A DNA stretch of 64,000 nucleotides. Origin: a virus. Positions 735 to 62,319 of the stretch are shown here, piece by piece; positions within the stretch are counted from its first letter, which is position 1; every line of letters starts with the position of its first letter. The notes under the pieces were generated by a model. The model ran no database searches, had not been told where the DNA came from, and was given only the letters and a program-made list of their open reading frames with translations. Position numbers and translations under genes: made by a program. Where the stretch lies: positions 27,953 through 91,952 of IMG/VR virus record IMGVR_UViG_3300034101_003795. One strand, written 5' to 3'.

Positions 735-3700
735 ATGGTTTCTCCAGGAAATAATACATCAAACTATAGTAGTAAAGCTGTTTGGAGTGGATCGTCGGCA
801 AAACCAACTACGGTTGGTACAAATGGTGGTCCAAGCTATTATGGAACCTATGATCAAGATGGAAATGTAAGCGAAATTGTACTAGGAAGTTTCCCTAATA
901 CTGGAACACCAGACTCTAATGCATTTCCCTACGGGGCTGGCGGAAACTTTTTCAGTAGTGCTGTTGGAAGAAATGTAAATTATTTTACTAACTTTGGAGC
1001 GAATTTAAATTCTGGTGGTTTTAGGCTCGTAGCAAAAGAATATACTAATATACAAATTTCATCTGTTAGTCCAGAATTTTTTAATCCTAATTCCGGTATT
1101 GTTCAATCTTTTTATATTAATAATTATGAAAATTTTCCTATTACTGGACTACAGATATCAGGATATTATAAAAATATTCTTAATCCAGTATGGTCTGGTT
1201 CATACGATCCATCATCATCTGGTACAATAAGCGGCACAGGGAACATATTAATAAATTGTACTCTTGGATCTAGTGGCAGTTTAATTATTAACTTTAGTGG
1301 AATTCCTAAATCTGGACTTTCTATATTATCTAATAGAATAACATTATATACTTCAAATAATTATAATCTACAACAAAATTATTATAAGATTAGTAGTACA
1401 ATTTCATCAGATAATGAAATTAATAGTTTGAATTACCAGCATAAATTTTCTCAACTTAATTGGGGTAGTATAAGCCCTAATTCTTTTGTTGTGGTTGACG
1501 ATATAGGAAATTCAAATGCTTTTGATGTTTATCAAAATAATTTAGGATCATATGTAGGAGGAGTAAATTATTATTATAATATTACTAAATATTACATCAC
1601 AAATAATGAATATTGTTTATTTTTAAACAGCGTGGATCCACAAGGAACAAATCCACAAAATATTTATTCCACATACGTACCAAATACAATAACTTATTCA
1701 TCTGAAAATATTAATGGCAACAAATATAGTGTTATAACTTCAGGATACAATAGAGGGAATAAACCAATAGATAATATTCCAGTAGCAAATATGTTGCGAT
1801 ATTGTAATTGGTTACATAATGGAGGCAAAAGATATAATACAACATCATCTGGAATTTCTGCACCACAAAATACCGGTTCTTATAACGTTGGTACTGGTGT
1901 GAATGTTCTCCCAACGATACCACAGGGCACAGGAAGATTTAGACTACCAAATGCTCACGAGATAACCAAAGCATCTTATTACAGAGGTAGTGATGGTATT
2001 TATTGGAATTTTGGAACAAAAACAAATAGTGCTCCACTAAGCGCTGGTATACATGCTCCAACAAGAGATAGTCAGCTACCTAGTGGAGTTAGTGGATTAG
2101 AATTACGACAATCATATAATACTGCAAATTTTGGTACTGCATTAACAACAGCAGGAACTAATGGCGCTTCAAGTCCATATGGATTATATGATGTTGAAGG
2201 TTCTGTTATGGAAGTAACTCATCACGGAAGCAATTTTTTTGCTATGCGCAATTCGTCATGGAGGAGCACCACAACAATAGCCAGACTGAACTCACTTTTA
2301 TTTGTTAGCGTGGCAAATATTGATACAGAATTTAATGCTGGGTATGCTTATGGTTTCAGAGTAGTATCTAGTGGATTGATAGGCGATATCGGTTTAGATT
2401 TAGAAAGTGCGGGAATTTATTATAATCAATCAATCCCTATTGAAGCAACAGCAACAATAGAAAATAGTTTCAATATTCCAAGTACTTTTTCAGTTCTTTT
2501 ATCAGTATCTGGACAAAATACTAGTCCTGGATATTGGACACCTTATTATTTTAATGGAGCTACTGGACCAAATGTAGTTCAAAATAATATAGGGTCTAGT
2601 ATATCGTTACCATCAGATGATAGTAAAGTTATATTTACTTTAGCTGGCGCCACGCCAAATGAAGTAGCAACAACTCCAATAGTTATAAATGGAACCATTA
2701 CTCCTATTGGTTTTGGTGATCTATCATTAGAAAATAATAGTGATAGTATTATTAAATATATTGATCCACAGACAAATCTAGGAGTATCAATAACAGGATC
2801 TCAAGTGGTAAACAAGGGAGAGAATATAAGTTATGATATAATAGTAAGTAATACTGGTAGTAGTTATGTTAGTGGTATAAATCTGTCTACTAATATATCT
2901 CCATTAAATAATATTAATTACAGATGGAACCAAGATCTTAGCCGTAGCACATCATCTATAGTGTCAGTTCCGCCATCAGGAACTGGAAATATAGTATCAA
3001 ATATTTCGCTTTTACCAAATACGTATTCTATATTTAGTATAAGTGGTTTAGTTACTAATACTTATTATCCTATAACAGCATATTCTAGCATTAGTGTTAC
3101 GGGAAATCAGAGTGGATTTAAGGAGAGCAGCGCATCAACATCGTTTGGGCCAACAGATCTACAAATAAGATATACCGGGATTCCAATCTACCATTCTGAT
3201 GGACAATTTGTAAATTATAAAATATTAATTACTAATTCTGGTAGTAACGATTCTATAAATTCAAGATTCTTTCATAACTTTACTAGTTTATCTGGTATAA
3301 ATTGGTCAATTGTTTATGGACCATCATCAACTGGAATAACTAATGGATCAGGAATTATTGACGCTTATATCCTTTTAGGATCAAACAGTAGTGCTACCAT
3401 TAATGTAGATGGTATAGCTAGTAACTCAAAGTATGGGGATATATTATTAACATCATCTATCACACCAACAGTAATTACTGATAGTAATTTATCAAATAAT
3501 ACTGCAATTATTAATATACCTCATAGTATAGCTATAAAAAATATCAAGTATAGTGAGAATAGTTGTGATAATAATGGTTATATTACCATTGGAATAACTG
3601 GAGGAATACCACCATATTCATATACTATCAATAATGAAACAATATCTTCTAATGATACTATACTCACAATAGAAAATCTAGAGGCTGGCTCATATACTCC

Positions 3701-5615
3701 ATTAGTATCCGATAGTACTAATACTGTATATTATTATCCTGAAACTATTACAATTATAGATAGTTCTATTACTGCTACTGTGGGAAATATTTATTCTCCA
3801 TTATTATTAGATAGTTATGGTGTTGTTAACTTGTCTGTTGCTGGTAGCGGTGCTCCTTATGCTTTTGTGTTTACAAATTCAACAGATAATAGCATATCAA
3901 TTCCATCACTGGAAACCAAGTATATTGTTTCTTCAGAAACAGATAACTCTTTAATTAATTATAGATTTGATAATCTATTAACTCCAGACAGTTATTCATA
4001 TCTGATACAAGATAAGTATGGATGTCGTTCGTCAGGATCTTTTAATATTCCAAATATATCTGAATTAAGCGTGCAGGTTTCAACAATTGATAATAATCCT
4101 ATAGTCACAGCTATTCCATCATTAACATTAGATATTTTTGATACTATATTGATACCATATAAACATATTAAAAATAATACTAATCTTTGGAAATTAATTA
4201 AAACATTAGATCTGAAAGACTATATTAGCATATTAATTAATAATGAAAAATATGAATTTAGAATAGTCAGAGATATGCTTGATAAGCACTGTGTTGATAC
4301 TCAAAACAATATAGAATTATTAAGATTTGGTAATTCTGAAGAAGATTGGTATTTCTTCTTTTATATCGCTCCATCTGTTGATTTGACAAATGATCAAACC
4401 AATATTGATAGTTCTTTTGAGATTTTAGATACTAATACTCAAGAAAAGTTCTTATTAACATTAGGTTTATCAGAAACTAATACGTTAGAACAAGACAATC
4501 CAAGTTTAATAAGAGGCAGTTTTATTCTTAATGGTTTGGGCTATAATGAATATTCAGATAATACTGAAGCTAATATTTCAATAGGATATAATTCAGATAA
4601 TCAATACAATTATTATATTAATAATATTAAGAAAATACTACTCAATAATATATATAGCGTGGGATTTGTTACTACTATCAGTTTTCTAGAACAATTTAAT
4701 ATTGCTAGAGAATATATTACTATTGGACAAACATCGTGCAGTCTATCTAAAGAAGACTATCAATATAAATTAAATATTAAAAATCTACTTATAGATATCA
4801 ATAATTTTAATAATGTTAATAATGTTTATATATTAAATGCTAATAGTATTTCTAATAATGGACAATTAAACACATTCATACTTGGTAATGATACTTTTAT
4901 AACTGAAGATGGAACTTTAACTAATTCTTATACTATAGAATATTTTACTTTTGACAAAAATTCAACTAGTTTCAAACATTTTGAGATGAATAATGAAATT
5001 ATTAAAGATATTAATGTAATTAGTGAATTAGATTCAAGATACATAATTATTAGAGCTAAAGATACATATAATAATATACCAAAGAGTATTAGTATTAATG
5101 GAGTAGTATCGTCTTATGATAATCATTTTATAATAGCTCAAAGAGATTTACAAAATTATAATAATTCTATATTATCAGAATTTAAGTACGGTGATATTTT
5201 AGTATTTATCAAAGATCTATCTACTATTAATAGTGTTGATAACGAAGTATCCGGACTAGATCCTAATACTGGTTTACCTGGAACTACCGTTTTAGGAGGA
5301 ACCACCAATTCGCTTGTGACAAATATTATTGAACAAACAAAAGACTCGTCAGGTACTGGATCATTGTTACTACAAATACCTTCTAAAACAGAGGTTGAAG
5401 TATTTGGCCCTAATAAATACTTTATTAAAGTTAGTTCTGATACAACATTTAAAAATTTAATTCCTGGACTTTATATTATTAAAGGAAATGAAGACAGTTT
5501 AAAGAAGAATAATCTTTATCAAAATGAACTAAGAATTTTAATATCTAAGAATATTCTTTCGACTATAACAATTGAATTTACTAGTTATACAAATAAATTA
5601 TTTATTAAGGATTAA
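735..5615 (+). CDS. large mosaic tail/adhesin-like protein (FGE-sulfatase/C-type lectin fold, DUF11-like and SprB-like repeats)
   Basis: TTVGTNGGPSYYGTYDQDGNVSE...GFRLV and FRLPNAHE...SPYGLYDVEGSVME...GFRVV (SUMF1-type); YDIIVSNTGSS and YKILITNSGSN (DUF11-like); GITGGIPPYSY (SprB-like); AGGA RBS. Confidence 0.65.
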   Translation: MVSPGNNTSNYSSKAVWSGSSAKPTTVGTNGGPSYYGTYDQDGNVSEIVLGSFPNTGTPDSNAFPYGAGGNFFSSAVGRNVNYFTNFGANLNSGGFRLVAKEYTNIQISSVSPEFFNPNSGIVQSFYINNYENFPITGLQISGYYKNILNPVWSGSYDPSSSGTISGTGNILINCTLGSSGSLIINFSGIPKSGLSILSNRITLYTSNNYNLQQNYYKISSTISSDNEINSLNYQHKFSQLNWGSISPNSFVVVDDIGNSNAFDVYQNNLGSYVGGVNYYYNITKYYITNNEYCLFLNSVDPQGTNPQNIYSTYVPNTITYSSENINGNKYSVITSGYNRGNKPIDNIPVANMLRYCNWLHNGGKRYNTTSSGISAPQNTGSYNVGTGVNVLPTIPQGTGRFRLPNAHEITKASYYRGSDGIYWNFGTKTNSAPLSAGIHAPTRDSQLPSGVSGLELRQSYNTANFGTALTTAGTNGASSPYGLYDVEGSVMEVTHHGSNFFAMRNSSWRSTTTIARLNSLLFVSVANIDTEFNAGYAYGFRVVSSGLIGDIGLDLESAGIYYNQSIPIEATATIENSFNIPSTFSVLLSVSGQNTSPGYWTPYYFNGATGPNVVQNNIGSSISLPSDDSKVIFTLAGATPNEVATTPIVINGTITPIGFGDLSLENNSDSIIKYIDPQTNLGVSITGSQVVNKGENISYDIIVSNTGSSYVSGINLSTNISPLNNINYRWNQDLSRSTSSIVSVPPSGTGNIVSNISLLPNTYSIFSISGLVTNTYYPITAYSSISVTGNQSGFKESSASTSFGPTDLQIRYTGIPIYHSDGQFVNYKILITNSGSNDSINSRFFHNFTSLSGINWSIVYGPSSTGITNGSGIIDAYILLGSNSSATINVDGIASNSKYGDILLTSSITPTVITDSNLSNNTAIINIPHSIAIKNIKYSENSCDNNGYITIGITGGIPPYSYTINNETISSNDTILTIENLEAGSYTPLVSDSTNTVYYYPETITIIDSSITATVGNIYSPLLLDSYGVVNLSVAGSGAPYAFVFTNSTDNSISIPSLETKYIVSSETDNSLINYRFDNLLTPDSYSYLIQDKYGCRSSGSFNIPNISELSVQVSTIDNNPIVTAIPSLTLDIFDTILIPYKHIKNNTNLWKLIKTLDLKDYISILINNEKYEFRIVRDMLDKHCVDTQNNIELLRFGNSEEDWYFFFYIAPSVDLTNDQTNIDSSFEILDTNTQEKFLLTLGLSETNTLEQDNPSLIRGSFILNGLGYNEYSDNTEANISIGYNSDNQYNYYINNIKKILLNNIYSVGFVTTISFLEQFNIAREYITIGQTSCSLSKEDYQYKLNIKNLLIDINNFNNVNNVYILNANSISNNGQLNTFILGNDTFITEDGTLTNSYTIEYFTFDKNSTSFKHFEMNNEIIKDINVISELDSRYIIIRAKDTYNNIPKSISINGVVSSYDNHFIIAQRDLQNYNNSILSEFKYGDILVFIKDLSTINSVDNEVSGLDPNTGLPGTTVLGGTTNSLVTNIIEQTKDSSGTGSLLLQIPSKTEVEVFGPNKYFIKVSSDTTFKNLIPGLYIIKGNEDSLKKNNLYQNELRILISKNILSTITIEFTSYTNKLFIKD

Positions 5616-5617
5616 TA

Positions 5618-8600
5618 ATGACAACCACCAGAAGAACTATAAACGCTAATATGTCTCTCTCGTATGCTCTTGGTGGCAATGTTTTTGGTGGAGATATAAG
5701 ATTAAGTAATTTTGCTTTAAATATTGGAATAGGAAGTCAGTCATCAAATCTTGATGTAGAATTCATCTACGACACATGTGGACAAGCTGGAGGGGTATCA
5801 AGACCAACAGTAGGTAGAGCTGTTAGATTTCAATGTAATTCATTAGTATTTGGTGGCATTATTAATAGTGTATCATATGGTGAATCTGCTGGTGGATCAG
5901 TTTATAAATTAAAAATTATTGATCCAAGAAAAGTATTAGAAAATGTGTCTATTCTTTTACAAGGATACTATTGTGATTATGGTATACAAGCTCCAAATTT
6001 TATTAATATTGCTTCTTTTATAGAGAATGGTGTTGCTATTTGTCCTCCTGGCGAGGATACTCAAAATTGGCCACGAGTTGGGAACTGTAATAATTTTGGG
6101 AGAATTAATAGTGCTAATGGTGTTTTCTTAAGAGAAGCTTTGGCTGGAATACAAAGGAAAAACCCATTTGTATATACCACCACTGGAGAACCATTGTATC
6201 TAAATTTGGGCAAAATTATAGCAATAACGCCAGGATATGCTAAAACAGAGGCTTCTACATCAAGTTTATTAGCTCTAATAACTCAGGCTTGCGACGAAGG
6301 CGCTTGTGATTTTATTGTATCATTAGTTGGTACAATAATAGATATCATGCCAATTAATAGAGGAACACAGCCACCTTCTGGTTTAATAGGTCAGGTAATA
6401 AGTAGTGCTCAAAACACAGGAACATTAATAAGTGGAGAAGTTGGAGAAGAAGAATTATATGAAAATAGTAATAAAGTAGTATTGGGGGAAAATGTACAGT
6501 ACTTAAGAACAATTCAGTCTCCTGGTAATGTGGCAATGATGTTGGGAACTGACTTAAACGATAACGCTATTAGAGTTTATAATACTAATTTTAGAGTACC
6601 AATTAATATATCTACATTAGCAGCAGGATTTGCATCACAAGGATATTCTCTTCCTTATATGTTTCCAGTTTCAGAAGAAGAGATATTGGCCGCTGGAACT
6701 ACAGAATTATGGAAATTATATGGATTAGCAAACGAAAATAGTTTGTCTGGAAATTTATTATCATTATTAAATATGAGAGAACCATTAGGGGATACGCTTA
6801 AAGCATTTAATTTATTATTAAATACAAGTAATCTTAATGATTTTAATAAAAGTTTAGATGCTGTAAATAATATAACCTCAGCAGTTGCAAAAGCTAGGAA
6901 TGCACATTTATATGAACTAGCATACGAATGGTTTGCTCAAGATTTTATATCAACATATTATGGTAAAAAATGGCTTGTCCCAATAAGTTATATATGTGCA
7001 AATCCTGCTCCTCAGTCAAATAAAGTGGCTGATGGAGGTTATATTAATTTATCAGACGTTCCTTCTGATGGAGGATGGCCAAATGATTATAATCTTTTAG
7101 GATTAACTTATGGATATAATACGTCTTTGTTTGAAACTCCAGATGGTAGATTGAGTGGATTTTTACGCATGAATACTGCTCAATCTTTACCACGAAGAAT
7201 AGGTCTAAGATCTGTAAACTTTGTTGTTTCTCCAGAAGGACTAGATCCTAGCTCTATGCTTATAGTAGGACAAAATTGTTATGTTAAGGTGCAAACAGAA
7301 GGAGAAATGTTTAGAAGATCTCCATCCGTAGCGGAAGTTCTTATAACTTCTCCTTTTTTAAGTATGACTCCCGTTATTAATACCGATATTGTTTCTGAGG
7401 GATTAAGAACTTTAGCTGTAATATTAGGAGATGGTACTTTACCAAGAAAAATTGAGAAGAGTGAGACTGGAGCTTCGATGAAATCTGGTGCAAATATTTT
7501 TAAAATGGGTAAGCCTTGTTGTTCGTTCGACTACGTTTCTGTGCCAATGAAAAGCAATATTTACGTTTATGGGCCATGGACAGGCAGCAAAGGATCTATA
7601 GGATCCACCACTGTTGAACAAACAAATTTGAGTCCTTGGAATTATGGTGGTTTTTCAACAATGAATATGGTGGGCCAAGCATTGGCTCAAAATGGATTAA
7701 GACTAAGTAATAAAACAGAGTCTGGATCTATGACATTGGCCGAACCACCTGGGTATAGTATAGAATATTTTATTAATGCTGCTATTGTTATTAATAGTAT
7801 TGGTGTTAATTTTAATTCTGGCGGCGCTACAACGACATATAGCTTTCAAACATATAGTCAAAAATTTGGACAGTACGGTAAGGCTATTTCAGATAGTATC
7901 CAAAAGTCAGTAAAAATAAGAAGTGAAATTTTAGGATATATTCGAACACAAAGAAGGAATTTAATAACAGCTAGTAATTCAATTAGAAAAGAAATGGCAA
8001 GGTTTGATATTAAACAGGGTAAGTATGCTTTTCAAAAACAGCCGCCAGCCACATCTAAATCTTCTCCGTCTTATTTACTTGTCGGCGGATATTACGATCC
8101 ATCATCTGCAGATAAAGCTTATACTGTTGGATTAAATTCTACTAATCAATTTGAAACATCTACAGAAGGTCCACCTTTTCAAAATTTAGCAATTATGTCA
8201 TTAGATGGATTATTATCTCCGGTATCTTTACAGGGACGAGGGGGTAGACTTCCTAGATTTGCAACTTCGTGGGGTTATGAAAAAGGAGACAAGTCACACA
8301 CAACAAGACCATGCATGCCCCCTATCGATAATCAAGAACCATTAGCTATCAATAGAAAGTATTTAAATCCTATTGTTAGTAGAACATTTTTACAAACATG
8401 GGAAGGAAGAGGATCATCGAACAGTTTTAATATTAGAGTTATTGGATTTGGACAAAACAATAGTAATAATAGTATTTTTAATGTGTCAGACACTAAGTAT
8501 GATAATGAAACTGATTTTGGTTTTTATGCATTAAGAGGTCCATTAGTTTTACAGTCTTGGGGTTATGACACTGAAGGGAAACCTATTCCAAATGCTGTTG

Positions 8601-26600: not shown

Positions 26601-27607
26601 TTTAATCCCATAGTTGTTTTAATATTTTTTACTAGATCAGTATATGCTGATTCATTTTCTAATAAATATTGTCTAACCTTTTCGCTTCCTTGAAATTTTG
26701 GCTTGTCTGGTAGTCCTGTTAGAGTATACCAAGCCCCGCCTTTGTGTATCAATCCCATATCAGATGATAGTGTAATGGCTTCCATGTATTTGTCAACCCC
26801 CTGACCATAACGAATATAACTCGTAATCTGTCCACCGGGAGGACCAAGTGCTGAACATATAACTTGCCATTCTATCTCTTGTCCTATTTGTGTACTATCG
26901 GCACTAAGTGTCCAGGGCTTAAATGTTTTTGCTCGTAATTTAATATCTGTCTGATACGCAATAGCCTGACCACTCTTCTCTTTAAATTCTGCACCATAAC
27001 CAGTAGGATTACCCATTAAATGAGTAATACCAATAACAATATTCTTATTTACAGGAATTACATTAGCAACCTTACGACAGAATTTAGCTAATAACTTTGC
27101 CCCATCTGCTCGTTGCATCTTATCCATATCGCTAGTAATTTCAGCTTCTGTGCATAATGCAGAATATGAGTCTATGATTAATAAACTTCCTGGTATTTCA
27201 TTAATAATTTTCTCTGCTATTTGAAGATACTCTTCCGCATGAAGAATCTTACCTTGTTGAGACCCTATAACATGAAATCTATCTAAATTTAACCCTGGTA
27301 TTCCTTCTAGGTCTCTTTTTTTCAATCTACCTTCAATATTTAGATAGTACACTTCTCTTGGATCTTTTAAGTCTCCTTGATATTCTGGCTTCTGTGCTGT
27401 TGCTGCGAAATCCAATGATGTTGTGGTTTTTCCACATTTGGGCTGTCCAGTTAATACAACAAAACTACCTTCTGGAATTCCACCGTTCAATATAATATCA
27501 AGCGATGGACTAACTGGTATAACGACACTTTTCTTGTCTACAATAGCATTTCCAGTTAATATAATATCGTCTCCAAAACTTTTAACAACGTCCTCTTTTA
27601 AACTCAT
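26594..27607 (-). CDS. recA: RecA/UvsX recombinase
   Basis: SPSLDIILNGGIPEG, GQPKCGKTT, IIDS, KGGAWY. Confidence 0.9.
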   Translation of the reverse strand: MSLKEDVVKSFGDDIILTGNAIVDKKSVVIPVSPSLDIILNGGIPEGSFVVLTGQPKCGKTTTSLDFAATAQKPEYQGDLKDPREVYYLNIEGRLKKRDLEGIPGLNLDRFHVIGSQQGKILHAEEYLQIAEKIINEIPGSLLIIDSYSALCTEAEITSDMDKMQRADGAKLLAKFCRKVANVIPVNKNIVIGITHLMGNPTGYGAEFKEKSGQAIAYQTDIKLRAKTFKPWTLSADSTQIGQEIEWQVICSALGPPGGQITSYIRYGQGVDKYMEAITLSSDMGLIHKGGAWYTLTGLPDKPKFQGSEKVRQYLLENESAYTDLVKNIKTTMGLKC

Positions 27608-54437: not shown

Positions 54438-55202
54438 CTACCTATCCATCTCTTCTATGTTCAAATTAATCCATTCTATATGATCACTAATTCTAGTGTG
54501 TCCTGATTCATCTCCATATGTTGAGTCTGGTTTTTTATCAATAGCCATTACGCATGAGTTGATTCCAGCAAGCCTGTCATCTATGAATAAACCACCCCCA
54601 CTGTCACCAGAAGAAATTAAAAACTCAAGGTCAGATGGGCTTGTATCGCTCATATGACGAGATGGTGTGCATATCAACAGACCTCTTTCTATCTGGTCTA
54701 TAGTATTTGATCCAGCCCTTCTCTCTGTGTCAGAGTAAATACAACCAGAATCAAATGTTCCATTTAAACCAAATCCACTAATTGTACATTTTTTATTAAC
54801 TTCATTGTTTTCTTGATATAACACTGGATAGGATTCTAGACCTATATCTTCATTAAGTGAGCATATTGCTATATCATACCAACCAAAATTATCTTCTTCA
54901 AAATCTCTATGACAAACTATATTTTTTACATGTATTTTTTTATTATTAATATGAATAACACACTTATCTGCATTCTTAACAACATGAGCAGCTGTTAATA
55001 TTATTCTTTTTCTTATAGCAACAGAAGATGCACAAAATATTTTGCCATCTCTATAAGAACCACATAATCTTCCAACATGTGGAAATTTTCTTCCAAAATC
55101 TATATATCTACTATCTTCAACTAAAGGATGTCGCGTCCCAGCATATCCTATATTAGATAATATGATCAAAAAGAATAGAATTATTAATTTAATTAGTCTC
55201 AT
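54438..55202 (-). CDS. secreted trypsin-like (S1) serine protease
   Basis: Signal peptide; LTAAHV, DIA, GDSGG. Confidence 0.9.
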   Translation of the reverse strand: MRLIKLIILFFLIILSNIGYAGTRHPLVEDSRYIDFGRKFPHVGRLCGSYRDGKIFCASSVAIRKRIILTAAHVVKNADKCVIHINNKKIHVKNIVCHRDFEEDNFGWYDIAICSLNEDIGLESYPVLYQENNEVNKKCTISGFGLNGTFDSGCIYSDTERRAGSNTIDQIERGLLICTPSRHMSDTSPSDLEFLISSGDSGGGLFIDDRLAGINSCVMAIDKKPDSTYGDESGHTRISDHIEWINLNIEEMDR

Positions 55203-55242
55203 TTCTAACTCCACTTACTGGTGGAATTGATATCCAAACTAA

Positions 55243-55252
55243 TTAATACACC
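55243..55252 (-). promoter_or_regulatory. putative phage late-promoter motif GGTGTATTAA
   Basis: Same 10-mer as at 36941-36950; intergenic. Confidence 0.5.
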
Positions 55253-55264
55253 CTATTATAGATT

Positions 55265-56266
55265 TTATAATACTTTTGATGCTATTAAACATCCTTTAGA
55301 AACAGCATGTAATGGATCTGATGCGTGTTTTACTTCTTTTATTGATAGTGGAAAATTATTTTCTTGTAATTTTTTAGTAAAAATATCCACATATCCTTTG
55401 GCTTGTGATGTGCCGCCAGCAACCACAATAGTCAATGGATTTTTAAACTTAGGTAATAACTTATGGTCTGTTAAAGCATGAGATAGTTGTTTTGTTGTAT
55501 AATCAATTAATCTATCATAGTATGAAGAAACGGCAGCCAGAATAGGATTATCATTAGGTTCACCTATATTAAAATCACTACCCTCTTTCTCTGCTTGAAC
55601 AACACTGTCCGTTTCACCAGTTGCAACAGCACTCATTCTATCAACCCAGTCTCCAGATTTTGTGGTACTAAAGACAACGGTTGGTTCACCATTAAGCATA
55701 ACACAAACATTTGTCATACCAGCACCACAACTAATTGCTATACCAGTATAATCATCGTTTTCTAACTCAGCATAACATAACGCTTCTGCTTCATTAATTG
55801 CTTTTGCGTCATATCCACATTCTGACAATACGGTTTTTATAACATCCTCATGATAGCCCACATCAAAATCCTCATCTTCTTGATCAACTGGTTGTGCAGG
55901 AACACAGAATACCAATTTTTCAAAGGGCTCGGATGATTCCCCGACTACTTCTTTCAAAATAAATGCTAATATTCTTTTGGCGTCTTTTTCTTTTGAAGAA
56001 ACAACACCCCTATACATTGGTCTTTTTGCTGTATCGTTTCTCTCAACCGCTTTTTCTATAGCATCTTTTCCTAGTATAATAAACGACCCATCACTATCTT
56101 TTATGAAAGTTTTTCCAGATAGTCCTTTTTCTATCATTTTTGTGGCAACGACTGTAGTTGGTTTTATAATATAAAAGGCATCTCTAAAATCCTTATAGAC
56201 AACTCCATCATCAGAATCTTGAGATAAAACAATAAAACTTGTACCAACATCTAGTCCCTTTGCCAT
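55265..56266 (-). CDS. actin-superfamily ATPase (MreB/FtsA/ParM-like)
   Basis: Phosphate-1 GLDVGTS, connect INEAEA, phosphate-2 ISCGAGMTN, SGDWVD, adenosine VVAGGTS, DPLHAVSKG. Confidence 0.85.
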   Translation of the reverse strand: MAKGLDVGTSFIVLSQDSDDGVVYKDFRDAFYIIKPTTVVATKMIEKGLSGKTFIKDSDGSFIILGKDAIEKAVERNDTAKRPMYRGVVSSKEKDAKRILAFILKEVVGESSEPFEKLVFCVPAQPVDQEDEDFDVGYHEDVIKTVLSECGYDAKAINEAEALCYAELENDDYTGIAISCGAGMTNVCVMLNGEPTVVFSTTKSGDWVDRMSAVATGETDSVVQAEKEGSDFNIGEPNDNPILAAVSSYYDRLIDYTTKQLSHALTDHKLLPKFKNPLTIVVAGGTSQAKGYVDIFTKKLQENNFPLSIKEVKHASDPLHAVSKGCLIASKVL

Positions 56267-56268
56267 AT

Positions 56269-56577
56269 TTAGCCTTTCATGTTTTTTAATTTATTAATTG
56301 AGGATGATATATTCTCATTTGATGTTTTTATATCTCCAAGATCTTTATATTTTTTTTCTAAATTATCCGTCTTAATATCTGTTACAAATGTTTTATCATC
56401 AATCTGAATTTTGTCTTTAGTAGATACCTGAGTATTATTTTTTCTAAAAACATTATTGTCTTTTATAGATACACCCTCGCTAGACCTAGGAATCAAATAT
56501 CCTATACAAAAACACATTACATTATTTACTAATAATATGGCTATTATTATATAATATATATTATGATCATAGGTCAT
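56269..56577 (-). CDS. N-terminal TM protein
   Basis: IYYIIIAILLVNNVMCFCIGYLI then charged tail. Confidence 0.7.
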   Translation of the reverse strand: MTYDHNIYYIIIAILLVNNVMCFCIGYLIPRSSEGVSIKDNNVFRKNNTQVSTKDKIQIDDKTFVTDIKTDNLEKKYKDLGDIKTSNENISSSINKLKNMKG

Positions 56578-57463
56578 ACTTATTTAATAGTCTACCTTTC
56601 TGTGATCTTACAACATAGCCTTTTCTAACCATGTATGGTTCAATACTATTTTCTATTGTTTCTATTGAAATTCCAGTTAAAGAAGAAATTGTCTTCAATC
56701 CAATAGGAGTTCCTTTAGATTTTGCTAGTGTTTCAATATATAGTTTATCATACACATCAAAACCATTATGGTCAATGCCTTGTATGTTAAATATCTCATC
56801 AATAGAAGCATCATCTTTGTTACACAGTTTATAATTTTTGTACCATTGTAGTCTAGCGTTCAGGATTCTTGGTGTGCCTTTGCTTCTTTTTGCAATCTCT
56901 AGTAGATCGTCATCTGATATATTAATATCTAGTTTTTGTGTATTCAACTTTGCTAGTTTAGCTAAATCACTATCACTATAAAAAGACAGATGTTCTTTAA
57001 TTGTGAAACGATCATAGAATGGCTGACTTAAACTTCCACCAGTTGTTGTAGCACCAACCAGAGTAAACATTGGAATATCAATAGTTTCTATATTATTTTC
57101 TATCGACATACTAAGTTGAAAATCCTCCATAATAGGATATAAGAATTCTTCAACTATTTTTGGCAATCTATGAATTTCATCAATAAATAAGATTGATCGT
57201 GGACTTATACCCATTAGATATGGCATAAGATTCTTAACGCTTCTCAGGTTTGCTGCGTTTGCTATGTATAGGTTCACGTTCATTTCGTGTGCTATAGCAC
57301 CCGCTATGGTGGTCTTACCAAGGCCAGGAGGGCCGTCTATTAAAACGTGAGGCATCACAGCACCCTCGCTTTTACAACCGCTCACCATGATCTTTAGACG
57401 ATCAAGAACATTTTGCTGACCAATTATATCGTCAAATTTAGTTGGTCTAATAATATTAGCCAT
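56567..57463 (-). CDS. ruvB: Holliday junction branch migration helicase RuvB
   Basis: IRPTKFDDIIGQ, GPPGLGKTT, LFIDEIHRL, GATT, DRF, KGTPR, IEPYMV. Confidence 0.93.
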   Translation of the reverse strand: MANIIRPTKFDDIIGQQNVLDRLKIMVSGCKSEGAVMPHVLIDGPPGLGKTTIAGAIAHEMNVNLYIANAANLRSVKNLMPYLMGISPRSILFIDEIHRLPKIVEEFLYPIMEDFQLSMSIENNIETIDIPMFTLVGATTTGGSLSQPFYDRFTIKEHLSFYSDSDLAKLAKLNTQKLDINISDDDLLEIAKRSKGTPRILNARLQWYKNYKLCNKDDASIDEIFNIQGIDHNGFDVYDKLYIETLAKSKGTPIGLKTISSLTGISIETIENSIEPYMVRKGYVVRSQKGRLLNKYDL

Positions 57464-57869
57464 TCAAACCTCCAATAGACTTTAGTGCTTTTTTAATTAG
57501 CGTGGAACAATCTTCTGTTATATTCTTTATATAACTAGAAATTAATAATTTGTGTGATTCTTCTTTGGTGAATCCATAATTGACCAGAGCTTCTGTGCTC
57601 TTTTCCAAAAGGTCATTTGGTATTGTGTCTTTCTCTGGTTGCTTAGTTTCTGTATGTTGTGATTCTTCTTTTTCTAAGTAAACAATTCTTATTTTTTTAA
57701 TTTGTTTTGGTGAAAAAGTAGTTTCACAATCACAAACAACTTTAAAGTTTTTTGTTTTAGTCTCTTTGATAGATAACCAGTGGTCACAATTACATTTATT
57801 ATTAGGGCATCTATATTTTAGATGCAAATCGTAATCAATCGGTTTCTGGTTTTTCTTTTTTGTATTCAT
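57456..57869 (-). CDS. Zn-ribbon fused to RuvA C-terminal (domain III) module
   Basis: CPNNKC...CDC; EALVNYGFTKEES...STLIKKALKSI resembles RuvA domain III; directly upstream of ruvB. Confidence 0.65.
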   Translation of the reverse strand: MNTKKKNQKPIDYDLHLKYRCPNNKCNCDHWLSIKETKTKNFKVVCDCETTFSPKQIKKIRIVYLEKEESQHTETKQPEKDTIPNDLLEKSTEALVNYGFTKEESHKLLISSYIKNITEDCSTLIKKALKSIGGLNG

Positions 57870-58260
57870 CTTTTACCCAAAAAATAAAATCATCAATATC
57901 GTTGTCATAACCTGTTTCAATAACGCCCTTATTAACTAGACCATTCAATATATTACTTGTCATTCTATCCCCTAGAGACTGTATAATTTTAGTATATATG
58001 GTATCATTAATTAATAGTCTGCGTTCTTTAGTTTTTTTGTTTTTTTGATGTTTCATTAACGATTTGATAATCATTGATGATTCATTAAGTGGTAGTATTT
58101 TATTTAATTCTTCTTTTTCTTTAGTTGTTAATACAATTATATCATCTGATTCTGTATCTTGATCTTCTTCTTGCTTACCGTAAGCATTATATATAATTTT
58201 TCTAGTGTGATCTATAAACATATCTAAATCTTTTATAACAAACCACTCATCTTTATTCAT
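57835..58260 (-). CDS. hypothetical protein
   Basis: Coupled ORF; C-terminal wHTH-like ILNGLVNKGVIE. Confidence 0.6.
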   Translation of the reverse strand: MNKDEWFVIKDLDMFIDHTRKIIYNAYGKQEEDQDTESDDIIVLTTKEKEELNKILPLNESSMIIKSLMKHQKNKKTKERRLLINDTIYTKIIQSLGDRMTSNILNGLVNKGVIETGYDNDIDDFIFWVKDEYKKEKPETD

Positions 58261-58269
58261 AAATATTTC

Positions 58270-58674
58270 CTAGTTGAGTATTTCAAATAATCCTTTATAG
58301 TATCGTGGTTGCCTAATAATATGTCCAGCATGACTCTGTAAATGTAATTCGTAGTCTTTGTGTAATTTATTATAAACAAAATATTTCATTTTCCAAATTC
58401 CTTCATTATACTGATTATTCCCCAAATACAGGGAGGTTTTATTCACCACTGTATTGGAGAAGTAATCATTCACAGGCAACGAAACAAACTGGAATCCATC
58501 AACAGGTTCGATTTTATATTGAGGTAGTTTATCAATAATTTCTTCTAATACTTCTTTATCTATCCATTGATAATCTATTTTATTCAATAAACTATCCATA
58601 TATTTCTTGATCCACTCAGTATCTATCTGAAAGTAGAATTTATAAGGATCGTCATTATTTTCTTTATCGTTCAT
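58270..58674 (-). CDS. hypothetical protein
   Basis: ORF 134 aa. Confidence 0.55.
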   Translation of the reverse strand: MNDKENNDDPYKFYFQIDTEWIKKYMDSLLNKIDYQWIDKEVLEEIIDKLPQYKIEPVDGFQFVSLPVNDYFSNTVVNKTSLYLGNNQYNEGIWKMKYFVYNKLHKDYELHLQSHAGHIIRQPRYYKGLFEILN

Positions 58675-58682
58675 AATTTAAA

Positions 58683-58746
58683 AAGGAATTAGGGGATCGA
58701 ACCCTAAGAGTTAGCACTAACTAATCCAGTCCCCAGACTATTCCTT
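58683..58746 (-). ncRNA. tRNA-like structured element without a canonical anticodon loop
   Basis: Acceptor-like AAGGAAT/ATTCCTT, T-arm TAGGG-TTCGATC-CCCTA, two short hairpins in between. Confidence 0.6.
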
Positions 58747-58755
58747 TGCTTTTAA

Positions 58756-59622
58756 TCAGTTATAACCATCCATATGATTATCTTCATCATGATAATAGGT
58801 TTCATCAATATCTTCCTCATCATCATTCCAGCCCCAATCATAATCATCATTAAGATCCTCTTCATCATCATCGTAGTCATCTTCAGTAAAGACAGACGAA
58901 TAAAGAGGCTTGAGAAGTTCGCCTTGATACTCTCCGACAACTTCATATCGGCAAGTGCGAAGTTTCTCATAGTTACAATCACTAGGAACACTCACAACAT
59001 CAGCAGGATTAATCTTAACGATAACAATCTTATCGCCAGATTCAAGACTTCCATAACCGGCCACATAATTCAATGCACCAGCATGAAGCCCATTAGAACA
59101 ACCTCGGCCACGATCATCATCTACTTTTGATCGTGTCATTTCGCAAACATTGCCAACATGATTATCAAAGACTCCGCGATATTTGTCCATGTAATCTGAC
59201 CTGACTGCCTTATAAGCAAGGAAATAACCATCCTCAGTAATAGGCAGATGCTCATGCTCAAGGAAATCATAGAGTTCCTTTTGACTCTGCATACTAGGAT
59301 TTTCCATAAGATTATTCAGGAAATTAACAAGAGGCTGAAAAGGAAGACCCTTACTCATAAACTCCAGAATTCTCTTACTGATAGATCCGTGAACAACCTC
59401 ACCCTCATAAGTTACCTGACCATTCTTGATCTCAACAAGACCGTCACTAAAAGTAGCAACTGCCTTCTCAATATCAATCATTTCAAGCAACTCGTCAGAT
59501 GTTGCAGTAGGCAATGCCTCCAGAATCATCTTATAGTTAAGATGGTCAGGCAGAACTTGAAAACTCTTGTTGTTCAGCACAACCGTCAGATTACCATCAA
59601 CAAACATAAACGGAACACTCAT
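58756..59622 (-). CDS. rIIB: rIIB-like protein
   Basis: LPITEDGYFLAYKAVR, CSNGLHAG, VKINPADVVSVPSD, KLRTCRYEV; follows rIIA. Confidence 0.85.
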   Translation of the reverse strand: MSVPFMFVDGNLTVVLNNKSFQVLPDHLNYKMILEALPTATSDELLEMIDIEKAVATFSDGLVEIKNGQVTYEGEVVHGSISKRILEFMSKGLPFQPLVNFLNNLMENPSMQSQKELYDFLEHEHLPITEDGYFLAYKAVRSDYMDKYRGVFDNHVGNVCEMTRSKVDDDRGRGCSNGLHAGALNYVAGYGSLESGDKIVIVKINPADVVSVPSDCNYEKLRTCRYEVVGEYQGELLKPLYSSVFTEDDYDDDEEDLNDDYDWGWNDDEEDIDETYYHDEDNHMDGYN

Positions 59623-59658: not shown

Positions 59659-62319
59659 TTACTTAATCAAACTACTCAACTGAATCTTAAACAAATCAAC
59701 CTTATCACTATCCATAGTCTCAACCCATATAGCATTATTTCTCTTACCATAATAATTATCAGCAAATTGAGAGATAGGATTATTCTTACTGTCCAAATGT
59801 CTAAGACTGCCGTTATTTTGGTTGCTTCCCATAACATACTTCAACATCGGGTTCTTGTCAACCTCGACTTTAAGAATTTTCTTCAAGTCTGCCGCTTTGG
59901 TCAACTTATACTTGATTGCTTTAGTCTCAGACTTAAACAACTTAGTATATCCCTCAATATCGTCAGAATGGTCAAACATCTGATGTTGAATATTTATAAG
60001 AGTGTTATACTGTACATTTTTCTTTTTGAGTTCCTTACTATCAAGATTATCAATACCTCGATCCTTGAGCAAAGAGTTAATATGGTCAAAATATTCAGTC
60101 TGAGAGAATAGTTTCAGATCAAAAGTTTCTCTGTGCATAGTATCAGCAAAGAATTCCATTACAAGAAAACTATCAATAACATTGGATAGTTCAGTATTCT
60201 TGATATATTTCTTATAGTCAAGACCAAAAATACTCAACATATGACAAGAGAACTGGCTAACCAGTGTTCCATAATTGTAATAATGATTATCGTTATCTCC
60301 ATCCTTACTGATAAATTCCTTTTTGTAGAATTCAACAATAGAGTTGTACTCATTGGTATTGTTAAAATAATTCTTAATCTTTGTTGAGAGAATCTTCTTG
60401 AACCAAGTGTTAAAGTCAACAAGATTGTGTCCTTCACTAGTCATTTTTGCTACAAAATTACTCTTGATAGCATAAACCTTCACATCTCCAAATAGTCCCT
60501 TGATATTCTCATTACCAAATAGCGATACAATCTTATTAATCTTGGGAAACTCTGGTGTGCTTTGATAACGAAGAATAGGAACATAAATGATAGAATCACT
60601 ATCACTCAATTCATCTAGTTCGTCACTTGTAAGAGTCTTCAAACTAAGAGCATCGTTATATTCGACACTAAGTTTACCAGAATCCTTAGACTGACCATGA
60701 ATAAAGAATATATCTTGATCGCTAACACTTCCATTACTATTCCTAACTCCAGTTTTACGAGGGCCAGAACTTTGAGTAAGATGCTTATAGTCAGAAACCT
60801 TTAACAGATTGTCAGCACCAACATCATTAATCAGATCATCAAAACCCTTGTCGCTTTGAGTATGATCCTTTGTGTCCATAATCATGTAAGCAAAACAATC
60901 ATTTTGATTACAATAACGTGTCACAATCTTCTTGGCAGTTTCTTCACCCTTAACGTCACAAACAAAAAAAGCAATTTTCCCATTCTTCTTCTGACTATTC
61001 CAGTAAGAATATCCCTTACCAGTAAGAGTATCATGATGGATTTTGTCTGTTAGAGAAATAAGGCGTCGTGAACGATACCCGCTGCTCTTGTAATTAAAAA
61101 CGTACAGGTTCTTGCCAGCCTTGATTTTATATTCAAGGTCAGCACCACTATTAATATTGTGGCTCTTACCATTAGGGTCAGTCCAAGATGCACCAACACC
61201 CCATCCACCAGACAATTCATTCATCTGATAATATGTTGTGATAGCCTCGATCTTAGTCTTAGCAGCAGAAATCTTCTTACTAAATTCATCCTTCATCTCA
61301 AGATAAATCTCTTGAGTCTTTTGACGCAGACTCTTAATTACGCTCTTAGTATACTGCAAACCTTCACGGGAAACATCCATTTCCAGTTCGCCAATACCAA
61401 AATCAAGTTCCAGATAAAGACCAGAGTTAATGATCTCACTAACAAAACTCTTCCACGAATCAATATCGGCCTTCTGGAAAGCCCTATTCCACTTGGCAAT
61501 ATGATCTGGTTGATCCTCCTTCTCCTGCCCAATAATCTGAGCAGTCTGAACAGGATACGCAATATTACCCATGATAGCAACAACACCACTATCAATACGT
61601 TGGTAGTTATTAGGATAATACTGGGTATCGTTATTAAGTCTGCAAACTCTCCAGCCGTTACCACTAATAACAATATTGGTATTGCTATACTTATGATCTT
61701 GCAGATTATCTCCAAGTCCACCTTCAATAATGGGTTTCATTCGGAAATAATGGAAAATCCTGATAGCCTTATTTGTAAACTCACTAAAATCGTGGTTCTT
61801 AACAGCAAAACTGATTTCAAGACCATTAGCCTCATCAGTTTCGCAAGTATTAAAAAGATTCAGAGTGGGAACACCGCTATCATCAATAGCAGCAATATAG
61901 GTATACTTAGTTCCATTAAAATAAGAACTGGTGGTAAAACTCTTGGTATAAGCAAACGGACTCTTGCTACCAAGACCAAGACAACCAACAAAATCGTTGC
62001 TATCGTTTTTATTAGAAGCACCGTAGGTTGTATACAGGTTCTCCATATCGCCCTGACTAAGACCAGTGCCATAATCACGCACGGTAAAAGAAGGATTAGC
62101 AGATGTTGGCAAGATCACCTTGAAGGGATTCTTATTACCAGCACTAATATGACTATCATAAGCATTAGTAGACAGTTCACGAATAACTGCCATCACCTTA
62201 TCGGAATAAAGAGAATCCGAAAGGATTTTAAACATTTTGCTGGTCTGAGCGATTGTAAAACCAGACTCGCTACGAACACCAGCACTATGAGTCTCAATAA
62301 CGCGATCTGCCAACTTCAT
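59659..62319 (-). CDS. rIIA: rIIA-like protein (GHKL ATPase N-domain)
   Basis: FKILSDSLYSDKVMAVIRELSTNAYDSH, DYGTGL, GLGSKSPFAY, SREGL. Confidence 0.88.
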   Translation of the reverse strand: MKLADRVIETHSAGVRSESGFTIAQTSKMFKILSDSLYSDKVMAVIRELSTNAYDSHISAGNKNPFKVILPTSANPSFTVRDYGTGLSQGDMENLYTTYGASNKNDSNDFVGCLGLGSKSPFAYTKSFTTSSYFNGTKYTYIAAIDDSGVPTLNLFNTCETDEANGLEISFAVKNHDFSEFTNKAIRIFHYFRMKPIIEGGLGDNLQDHKYSNTNIVISGNGWRVCRLNNDTQYYPNNYQRIDSGVVAIMGNIAYPVQTAQIIGQEKEDQPDHIAKWNRAFQKADIDSWKSFVSEIINSGLYLELDFGIGELEMDVSREGLQYTKSVIKSLRQKTQEIYLEMKDEFSKKISAAKTKIEAITTYYQMNELSGGWGVGASWTDPNGKSHNINSGADLEYKIKAGKNLYVFNYKSSGYRSRRLISLTDKIHHDTLTGKGYSYWNSQKKNGKIAFFVCDVKGEETAKKIVTRYCNQNDCFAYMIMDTKDHTQSDKGFDDLINDVGADNLLKVSDYKHLTQSSGPRKTGVRNSNGSVSDQDIFFIHGQSKDSGKLSVEYNDALSLKTLTSDELDELSDSDSIIYVPILRYQSTPEFPKINKIVSLFGNENIKGLFGDVKVYAIKSNFVAKMTSEGHNLVDFNTWFKKILSTKIKNYFNNTNEYNSIVEFYKKEFISKDGDNDNHYYNYGTLVSQFSCHMLSIFGLDYKKYIKNTELSNVIDSFLVMEFFADTMHRETFDLKLFSQTEYFDHINSLLKDRGIDNLDSKELKKKNVQYNTLINIQHQMFDHSDDIEGYTKLFKSETKAIKYKLTKAADLKKILKVEVDKNPMLKYVMGSNQNNGSLRHLDSKNNPISQFADNYYGKRNNAIWVETMDSDKVDLFKIQLSSLIK

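Follow-up and report, generated by a model that had tools for sequence, protein, structure and literature searches.

Here we report a comparative analysis of a five-gene run on the minus strand at positions 55265-58260 of a 64,000-nt stretch of viral DNA (hereafter the window), which corresponds to bases 27953-91952 of the IMG/VR record IMGVR_UViG_3300034101_003795. Read along that strand, the run encodes an acidic protein of 141 aa (g1, 57835..58260), a 137-aa mini-RuvA (g2, 57456..57869), a 298-aa RuvB AAA+ motor (56567..57463), a single-pass transmembrane adaptor of 102 aa (56269..56577) and a 333-aa actin-fold ATPase of the Volactin family (55265..56266). An initial annotation had described these as five genes joined by overlaps or by a 2-nt gap, and the coordinates and junctions are all confirmed: g1 and g2 overlap by 35 nt, g2 and ruvB by 8 nt, and ruvB and the adaptor gene by 11 nt, with 2 nt between the adaptor and actin genes. 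From this arrangement it had proposed a single system in which RuvB is coupled to a membrane-anchored filament. We consider it likely instead, with a probability of roughly 0.62, that two self-contained accessory modules have come to lie side by side in this particular lineage, in a variable region downstream of rIIA and rIIB. Module A, made up of a further upstream gene for a 134-aa protein (58270..58674, minus strand) together with g1, the mini-RuvA and RuvB, would be a cut-down RuvAB motor; module B, made up of the transmembrane adaptor and the volactin-type actin, would be a filament-plus-adaptor pair resembling ParM/ParR.

The evidence for two modules comes from the arrangement of these genes in related phages. 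We gathered 154 related IMG/VR loci, via the actin and via RuvB, and mapped 15 proteins of the window by tblastn on 157 loci, a set that includes two huge-phage loci and the window's own locus. The conserved order is rIIA, rIIB, a variable stretch, the 134-aa gene, g1, g2 and RuvB, a second variable stretch, the transmembrane adaptor and actin, a third variable stretch, and then a protease and further small genes. Two blocks within this order are compact, but not the junction between them: in the 77 unique loci that carry RuvB as well as actin, the interval between the RuvB stop and the start of the actin gene ranges from 303 to 5795 bp and falls into three classes, with 303-462 bp in 33 loci, ∼650-1000 bp in about 22 and 1.3-5.8 kb in the remaining 22. 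The inserts responsible, 0.4-5.5 kb in size, encode thioredoxin-like proteins, DUF1501 proteins, 2-oxoglutarate- and Fe(II)-dependent (2OG-Fe(II)) oxygenases and a GT2 glycosyltransferase, and are unrelated accessory genes of kinds that are ordinary in aquatic phages. Between ruvB and the adaptor gene, the single insert met most often is a thioredoxin-like gene of ∼125 aa (positions 5314-5691 of locus L009, and about 22 other relatives), which is not present in the lineage of the window.

The presence and absence of the two modules point the same way. Among unique loci selected via RuvB, 25 have the adaptor-actin pair, 17 do not and 13 are too short to tell, leaving 17 of 42 decidable loci without the pair; in these 17 the downstream marker genes follow directly on RuvB. 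No volactin was found anywhere in five actin-negative records with 24-66 kb of sequence available. A sibling locus (L085), which shares 94% nucleotide identity with the window on both sides, lacks exactly window positions 54476-56561, a 2,086-bp cassette that holds the adaptor, the actin and most of the protease gene. The blastn alignment of L085 passes from 826-6902 (window 62633-56562) directly to 6906-8278 (window 54475-53100), with the break at the RuvB stop codon. Within the family, a cross-tabulation of g2 by actin (59/16/14/3) reveals no association, and a maximum-likelihood tree of 96 RuvB sequences implies at least 9 state changes for g2, at least 7 for actin and at least 16 for spacing class, while independent pairs on this tree that differ in g2 mostly do not differ in actin. 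Further afield, neither of the two huge phages, whose volactins are 32-35% identical, has a RuvB near the actin; RuvB is missing altogether from one of them, and the other has a marginal AAA+ match at a distance of 84 kb. No true RuvB was found beside cellular volactins, and the weak “RuvB” tblastn matches near some of them proved to be CDC48-type AAA+ proteins. Gene-order conservation was the check that the initial annotation had itself put forward, and on the side of linkage the outcome goes against the coupling it proposed: spacing is variable, the pair is missing from 17 of 42 loci, it has been deleted in L085, and it is gained and lost independently. An accessory-gene hot spot in which modules become adjacent via the loss of intervening genes fits both the spacing and the presence/absence results. 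In the window phage, such loss of the separating genes would have left ruvB and the adaptor gene overlapping and probably co-expressed, without the two modules forming one machine.

The actin of module B is a full-length member of the Volactin family (Pfam PF25216, E 4.1e-65), with a score of 220.8 bits where the cut-off is 35 and a match that covers positions 1-320 of the 321 in the model; the genome search scored it at 220.4 bits. Its nucleotide-binding motifs GLDVGTS (phosphate 1), SCGAGMTN (phosphate 2) and AGGTS (adenosine) are invariant or nearly so in 47 homologues, and the earlier label of actin-like ATPase is borne out by both lines of evidence. As in distant family members, the phosphate 2 motif begins with Ser rather than Asp. 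The match to MreB_Mbl is partial and below cut-off (23.7 bits, cut-off 27), and by Pfam the protein is neither MreB nor ParM; a profile built from the actin alignment (A4) found no sequence relatives in the PDB. Mean column identity across the 47 homologues is 86%, as against 40-50% for g1, g2 and the adaptor, from which, together with its Volactin membership, we infer that the protein polymerises into dynamic filaments. Homologues form 1785 clusters at 90% identity. In our search for distant phage actins, P0126 gave one poor locus and P0123 recovered only the same family, and our literature search found no paper on a phage volactin.

Several volactin homologues have unusual architectures. One of 695 aa (P0124) shares 57% identity with the phage actin and is split, after approximately residue 204, by an intein that includes a LAGLIDADG homing-endonuclease domain; the same may hold for roughly a dozen further matches of ∼700 aa, each of which aligns in two stretches. 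Another (P0158, 1160 aa) fuses volactin to a Wzz, GNVR and ParA-like tyrosine-kinase module, the architecture of a membrane polysaccharide co-polymerase, and a third (P0149, 654 aa) has a weak match to a ParB-type helix-turn-helix (HTH) before the volactin domain, at 21.1 bits, below cut-off.

The adaptor belongs to no Pfam family and has no recognisable DNA-binding domain, and the profile of its alignment (A3) has no sequence relatives in the PDB. In 60 homologues the N-terminal transmembrane helix (∼window 56479-56547) and the linker that follows are variable, whereas the C-terminal tail of ∼48 residues (window 56272-56415) is conserved, with several columns at 90% or above. Because basic residues follow the helix, the tail is predicted by the positive-inside rule to be cytoplasmic. 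In nearly all loci 4-57 bp separate the gene from the actin downstream of it. In order to trace the tail outside phages, species-representative genomes were scanned, which yielded 31 loci with volactin homologues from bacterial and archaeal metagenome-assembled genomes (MAGs). Two of these, L196 and L221, have a phage-type transmembrane adaptor, are probably phage and were excluded, and three others (L197, L198 and L200) were rejected as cellular loci on the basis of rIIB, RuvB or protease matches. The latter three come from GTDB MAGs labelled Flavobacteriales, Chitinophagia and Alphaproteobacteria and carry phage-family genes for rIIB, RuvB, the adaptor, the actin and the protease. These contigs are probably of phage origin and were placed in bins with cells, which is either a weak hint at the host or plain mis-binning.

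A similar tail is found at the end of the gene adjoining the actin in the remaining cellular loci. When a hidden Markov model (HMM) of the phage tail was run against 2,748 six-frame open reading frames (ORFs) of the cellular loci, eight of the ten best non-phage matches were the C-termini of actin-adjacent ORFs, either up- or downstream (E 2.6e-5 to 1.7), the best being L195 (2.6e-5), L206 (2.9e-4), L205 (0.011) and L207 (0.037), followed by weaker ones. The earlier proposal that the membrane protein partners the actin therefore stands, on the grounds of the close spacing in nearly all loci and of a tail shared with actin-adjacent cellular genes. Matches to winged helix-turn-helix (wHTH) domains, all sub-threshold, occur in the N-terminal parts of five of the ten cellular partners scanned: that of L215 reaches 26.2 bits for MarR_2 (cut-off 27, E 9e-6), and those of L210, L222, L199 and L213 are weaker. 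Several cellular partners thus probably carry an N-terminal wHTH domain, and these proteins look like adaptors of the ParR/AlpA type, in which a head binds DNA and a tail binds actin. The phage adaptor would place the same tail on a membrane helix instead of a DNA-binding head, and the contact between tail and actin is a candidate one.

Two of the cellular loci, L215 (1-8000) and L210 (1-8200), place the volactin and its partner with wHTH and tail in gene clusters that encode GvpL/GvpF gas-vesicle proteins, one of which is fused to DnaJ. These clusters also hold a CDC48-type double AAA+ ATPase and an ArsA-like ATPase. L215 is titled as a Patescibacteria group MAG and L210 only as a “bacterium” MAG.

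If the tail binds or caps actin filaments in the cytoplasm, module B would tie filament ends to the inner membrane rather than to DNA, and the filaments may brace or push the envelope of the infected cell. A mechanical role in cell shape, size or division is favoured over the transport of DNA or other cargo, because the membrane is the sole cargo that can be recognised. Among known systems the closest to the phage actin is Volactin (VolA/HVO_2015) of the archaeon Haloferax volcanii, where it has a role in the rod-to-disk shape change; its filaments are reported to span the cytoplasm and to contact the membrane with their tips, and its binding partners are listed as unknown (PMC10869688). A membrane-anchoring adaptor fits filament tips that touch the membrane (PMC10869688). 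Unlike VolA, the phage protein is virus-encoded and is paired with a single-pass membrane adaptor of 102 aa. MreB offers a second comparison, as an actin homologue that is bound by the single-pass membrane protein RodZ via the cytoplasmic domain of the latter. RodZ makes this contact through an N-terminal HTH; in the phage adaptor the candidate contact is the C-terminal tail, and the phage actin falls below the MreB_Mbl cut-off.

The arrangement of an actin-fold ATPase beside a small adaptor also recalls ParM/ParR of type II plasmid partition and AlpC/AlpA of prophage CGP3 (PMC4446434, PMC5539076). The cellular relatives, with a probable wHTH adaptor bearing the same tail, follow the ParR/AlpA logic. 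In the phage adaptor a transmembrane helix replaces the DNA-binding head and the gene lies upstream of the actin, and the phage actin belongs by Pfam to neither the ParM nor the AlpC family. An alternative for module B is that the filament moves cargo: through a putative second adaptor, and independently of RuvB, it would position phage DNA during replication, procapsids or assembly sites, in the way of AlpC/AlpA or PhuZ. AlpC and its adaptor AlpA are reported to be required for efficient replication of CGP3 DNA (PMC4446434), and AlpC is described as involved in viral DNA transport (PMC5539076); the probable wHTH domains of cellular partners and the weak N-terminal ParB-type fusion of one volactin homologue (21.1 bits) are further points in favour of cargo. 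However, when the tail HMM was searched against the 92-kb record and a complete 159-kb relative, the transmembrane protein was the only one found to carry the tail, and centromere-like repeats were not noticed, although no search was aimed at them. We regard cargo transport as rather unlikely, and retain a membrane-tethered mechanical role for module B.

The motor of module A is a genuine RuvB, complete in its three domains and with intact catalytic motifs. RuvB_N (1.5e-46, 158.5 bits), AAA_lid_4 (7e-9, 35.7 bits) and RuvB_C (3.4e-16, 59.4 bits) all score above their Pfam cut-offs, and phmmer aligns residues 4-293 with the RuvB of PDB entry 9dx4 at E 1.2e-64, placing GPPGLGKT, DEIH, GATT, DRF and GTPR on the Walker A, Walker B, sensor 1, arginine and sensor 2 motifs of that protein. 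The label of RuvB given in the initial annotation is secure on these matches. The presensor-1 hairpin is present, four residues shorter than in 9dx4, which is the best PDB match. It is kept in relatives with and without g2, and no column of the RuvB alignment and no signature of hairpin length separates the RuvBs that have g2 from those that do not.

The mini-RuvA encoded by g2 joins a four-cysteine zinc ribbon (about residues 10-65, window 57675-57842) to a three-helix bundle corresponding to RuvA domain III (about residues 85-136, window 57462-57617) through a variable linker. In an alignment of 55 homologues C21, C26, C46, C48 and W31 are invariant, and a C-terminal block of ∼50 residues is conserved. 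The Pfam match to RuvA_C is below cut-off (18.7 bits, cut-off 24); the family profile finds as its best match in the PDB domain III of Thermus thermophilus RuvA (1ixs_A, E 5.7e-4), a chain solved in complex with RuvB, with other RuvA entries next. An AlphaFold2 model with a predicted local distance difference test (pLDDT) score of 85 has a zinc-ribbon-like beta domain, a disordered linker and a three-helix bundle, and Foldseek ranks 1-13, 15 and 17 for this model are all RuvA, with isolated domain III chains superimposing at TM-scores of 0.75-0.78 and root-mean-square deviations of 1.7-2.6 Å. No match was obtained to the Pfam models for RuvA_N or the helix-hairpin-helix (HhH), and the N-terminal domain is basic, with a family mean charge of +6.8. 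Agreement between the invariant cysteines, profile, predicted structure and Foldseek supports the earlier designation of g2 as a zinc ribbon with RuvA domain III, and, with a true RuvB adjoining it, the idea of a re-engineered loader is sustained. In bacteria, RuvA domain III binds the presensor-1 hairpin of RuvB and serves as nucleotide-exchange factor and ATPase activator, whereas the whole of RuvA acts as a fulcrum for force generation (PMC9477746). Because domain III binds and activates RuvB (PMC9477746), a basic zinc ribbon joined to domain III makes a plausible minimal loader or anchor, and we put g2 forward as a candidate for that role, with its binding to RuvB inferred from these likenesses. 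Wherever it is present (85 of 105 loci) g2 overlaps the start of ruvB; in the other 20 (∼19%) it is absent, with no room left for it.

Two further genes accompany the motor. The 134-aa gene, whose product belongs to no Pfam or PHROG family, always lies immediately upstream of g1, and both always accompany RuvB in the relatives mapped by tblastn; it is probably the first gene of the RuvB module. Homologues of g1, of which 68 were aligned (A2), are ∼45% identical, and the family has a mean net charge of -10. The initial annotation called g1 wHTH-like, and this we could not substantiate. For an AlphaFold2 model with a pLDDT of 85.8 and a predicted template modelling score (pTM) of 0.73, Foldseek gave only weak MarR/SarA rows at a probability of 0.28 or less and VIA-align gave Z scores of 5.2 or less; the profile found nothing in the PDB better than E 0.19 (AdcR, E 0.36), and the ESM Atlas returned only scores of 0.83. 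DNA binding is disfavoured because of the net charge, and we treat g1 as a conserved acidic partner. The C-terminus EKPETD (window 57838-57855) is conserved in most of the 68 homologues, and looks like a docking peptide for some partner.

In module A, domain III would dock on the presensor-1 hairpin of RuvB, activate its ATPase and exchange its nucleotide as in bacterial RuvAB, and the zinc ribbon would take the place of RuvA domains I and II as the anchor on DNA or on a DNA-bound partner. The motor may then carry out branch migration or fork remodelling in recombination-dependent phage replication, its junctions being cut by endonuclease VII rather than RuvC. Searches of the 92-kb record and of three relatives that CheckV rates 100% complete gave no match to RuvC (PF02075) or to RuvA_N, which upholds the earlier remark that canonical RuvA junction-binding domains and RuvC are absent. 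Endonuclease VII is encoded elsewhere in the genome in all three complete relatives; it was not found in the 92-kb record itself. The likeness to bacterial RuvAB (PDB 1IXS/1IXR and the 7PBL series; PMC9477746) lies in the three RuvB domains with their catalytic motifs and in a partner that has the domain III bundle and is encoded immediately upstream by an overlapping gene. In contrast to bacterial RuvAB, this partner has a basic four-Cys zinc ribbon instead of the OB-fold domain I and HhH domain II and is missing in ∼19% of relatives, no RuvC was found but endonuclease VII occurs in the complete relatives, and two extra small conserved genes (the 134-aa gene and g1) stand upstream. No published description of a phage RuvB with a mini-RuvA turned up in our literature search. 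A “RuvB helicase-like” virion protein of phage PaBG (PMC7412058) was considered and set aside; at 221 kDa it is far larger than the 298-aa RuvB. The tail HMM described above gave no match on g1, g2, RuvB or the 134-aa protein.

Just upstream of the run, on the minus strand, lie homologues of rIIA (59659-62319) and rIIB (58756-59622), which are early genes in T4. This position, together with the strongly acidic g1 that is without a DNA-binding signature, would suit a module A directed against the host, in which domain III alone or with g1 docks on host RuvB, or phage RuvB titrates host RuvA, and host recombination and repair are disabled or redirected early in infection. Cross-species hetero-complementation of RuvAB has been reported (PMC9477746), consistent with a conserved interface, and the dispensability of g2 in 20 of 105 relatives can be counted on the same side. 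Set against this, the overlap of g2 with the phage's own ruvB start wherever g2 is present is usual for stoichiometric partners, the phage RuvB retains every catalytic motif as well as the hairpin, and endonuclease VII in the complete relatives fits a phage recombination pathway. A host target is on balance improbable, and we continue to view module A as a motor that works for the phage.

Our reading of two separate modules has points to answer. RuvB and the actin pair keep the same order and orientation without exception, and because that order is fixed and only the adaptor gene intervenes in 33 of 77 loci, weak selection for proximity is possible; in the window the 11-nt overlap between the RuvB stop and the adaptor start further implies co-expression. 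The actin-negative records are fragments, 17-48% complete, whose genomes may possess an actin elsewhere, and owing to phage recombination the RuvB tree may be a poor proxy for genome history. Furthermore, the 20 of 105 relatives without g2 keep a RuvB with its hairpin, so that g2 is not obligatory for RuvB, which bears on the part that we assign to it. These points do not restore the single system of the initial annotation, in which a RuvB loaded by the mini-RuvA translocates phage DNA while tethered via the transmembrane protein to an actin filament, for positioning, segregation or delivery: the abutting, overlapping genes of the window, the invariant placing of RuvB before the adaptor and actin with tight spacing in 33 of 77 loci, and the cellular partners whose probable wHTH domains indicate that this actin family can be linked to DNA are outweighed by unrelated accessory spacers of up to 5.5 kb, by the 17 of 42 decidable RuvB loci without the pair, by a clean natural deletion in a 94% identical sibling and independent gains and losses, by distant phages and cells where no RuvB lies beside volactin, and by a tail motif found on none of g1, g2, RuvB and the 134-aa protein, which together make it highly improbable. 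We give equally little credence to a looser version, in which, in phages that have both modules, a volactin filament tethered to the membrane would set up an envelope site for the processing of replicating or recombining phage DNA by RuvB and the mini-RuvA, bridged by acidic g1 with its EKPETD tail, with tight linkage in 33 of 77 loci reflecting selection for co-expression.

As regards the wider setting, the source record is 91,952 bp long, with a CheckV completeness of ∼66%, and the window has a GC content of ∼31%. The best identity of its rIIB to any isolated phage is 43%, there being no close isolate, and the source is an uncultured, low-GC, T4-like freshwater phage. A RecA/UvsX-like gene lies at window 26792-27592, ∼29 kb from the run, in agreement with the earlier observation that the block is far from recA. 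The GGTGTA motif is not enriched in the window (12 found vs 16.5 expected); none lies between ruvB and the adaptor gene and one lies after the actin, before the protease gene. Scans of the window for sigma-70 promoters and terminators performed no better than on shuffled sequence. The terminator scan picked out a hairpin between rIIB and the 134-aa gene (window 58683-58746, minus strand), which contains GGGTTCGATCCCC, resembles a T-arm and is followed by a T-run; ARAGORN predicted no tRNA at this position. Downstream of the actin, also on the minus strand, is a secreted, trypsin-like serine protease (54438-55214; Pfam Trypsin 9.5e-17) whose N-terminus holds a signal or anchor sequence. The L085 deletion takes out most of it together with the adaptor and actin. 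It is not tied to the actin, because it adjoins RuvB in many actin-negative relatives.

A coupled machine of RuvB, adaptor and actin would, if true, be a new kind of system, but the comparative data speak against it. What emerges instead is that an abundant group of lake phages carries two variants, so far undescribed, of textbook machines. Module A would be a natural minimal RuvAB, in which RuvA has been cut down to its motor-regulating domain and set on a zinc ribbon, and as such would offer a direct test of how much of RuvA force generation requires, given the “fulcrum” role assigned to the whole protein (PMC9477746). In module B, a conserved tail appears to have had its probable DNA-binding head, as in cells, swapped for a membrane helix in phages. 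This suggests that a modular system of filament and adaptor, resembling ParM/ParR, is spread across bacteria, archaea and viruses, and the adaptor tail may provide a first handle on the binding partners of volactin.

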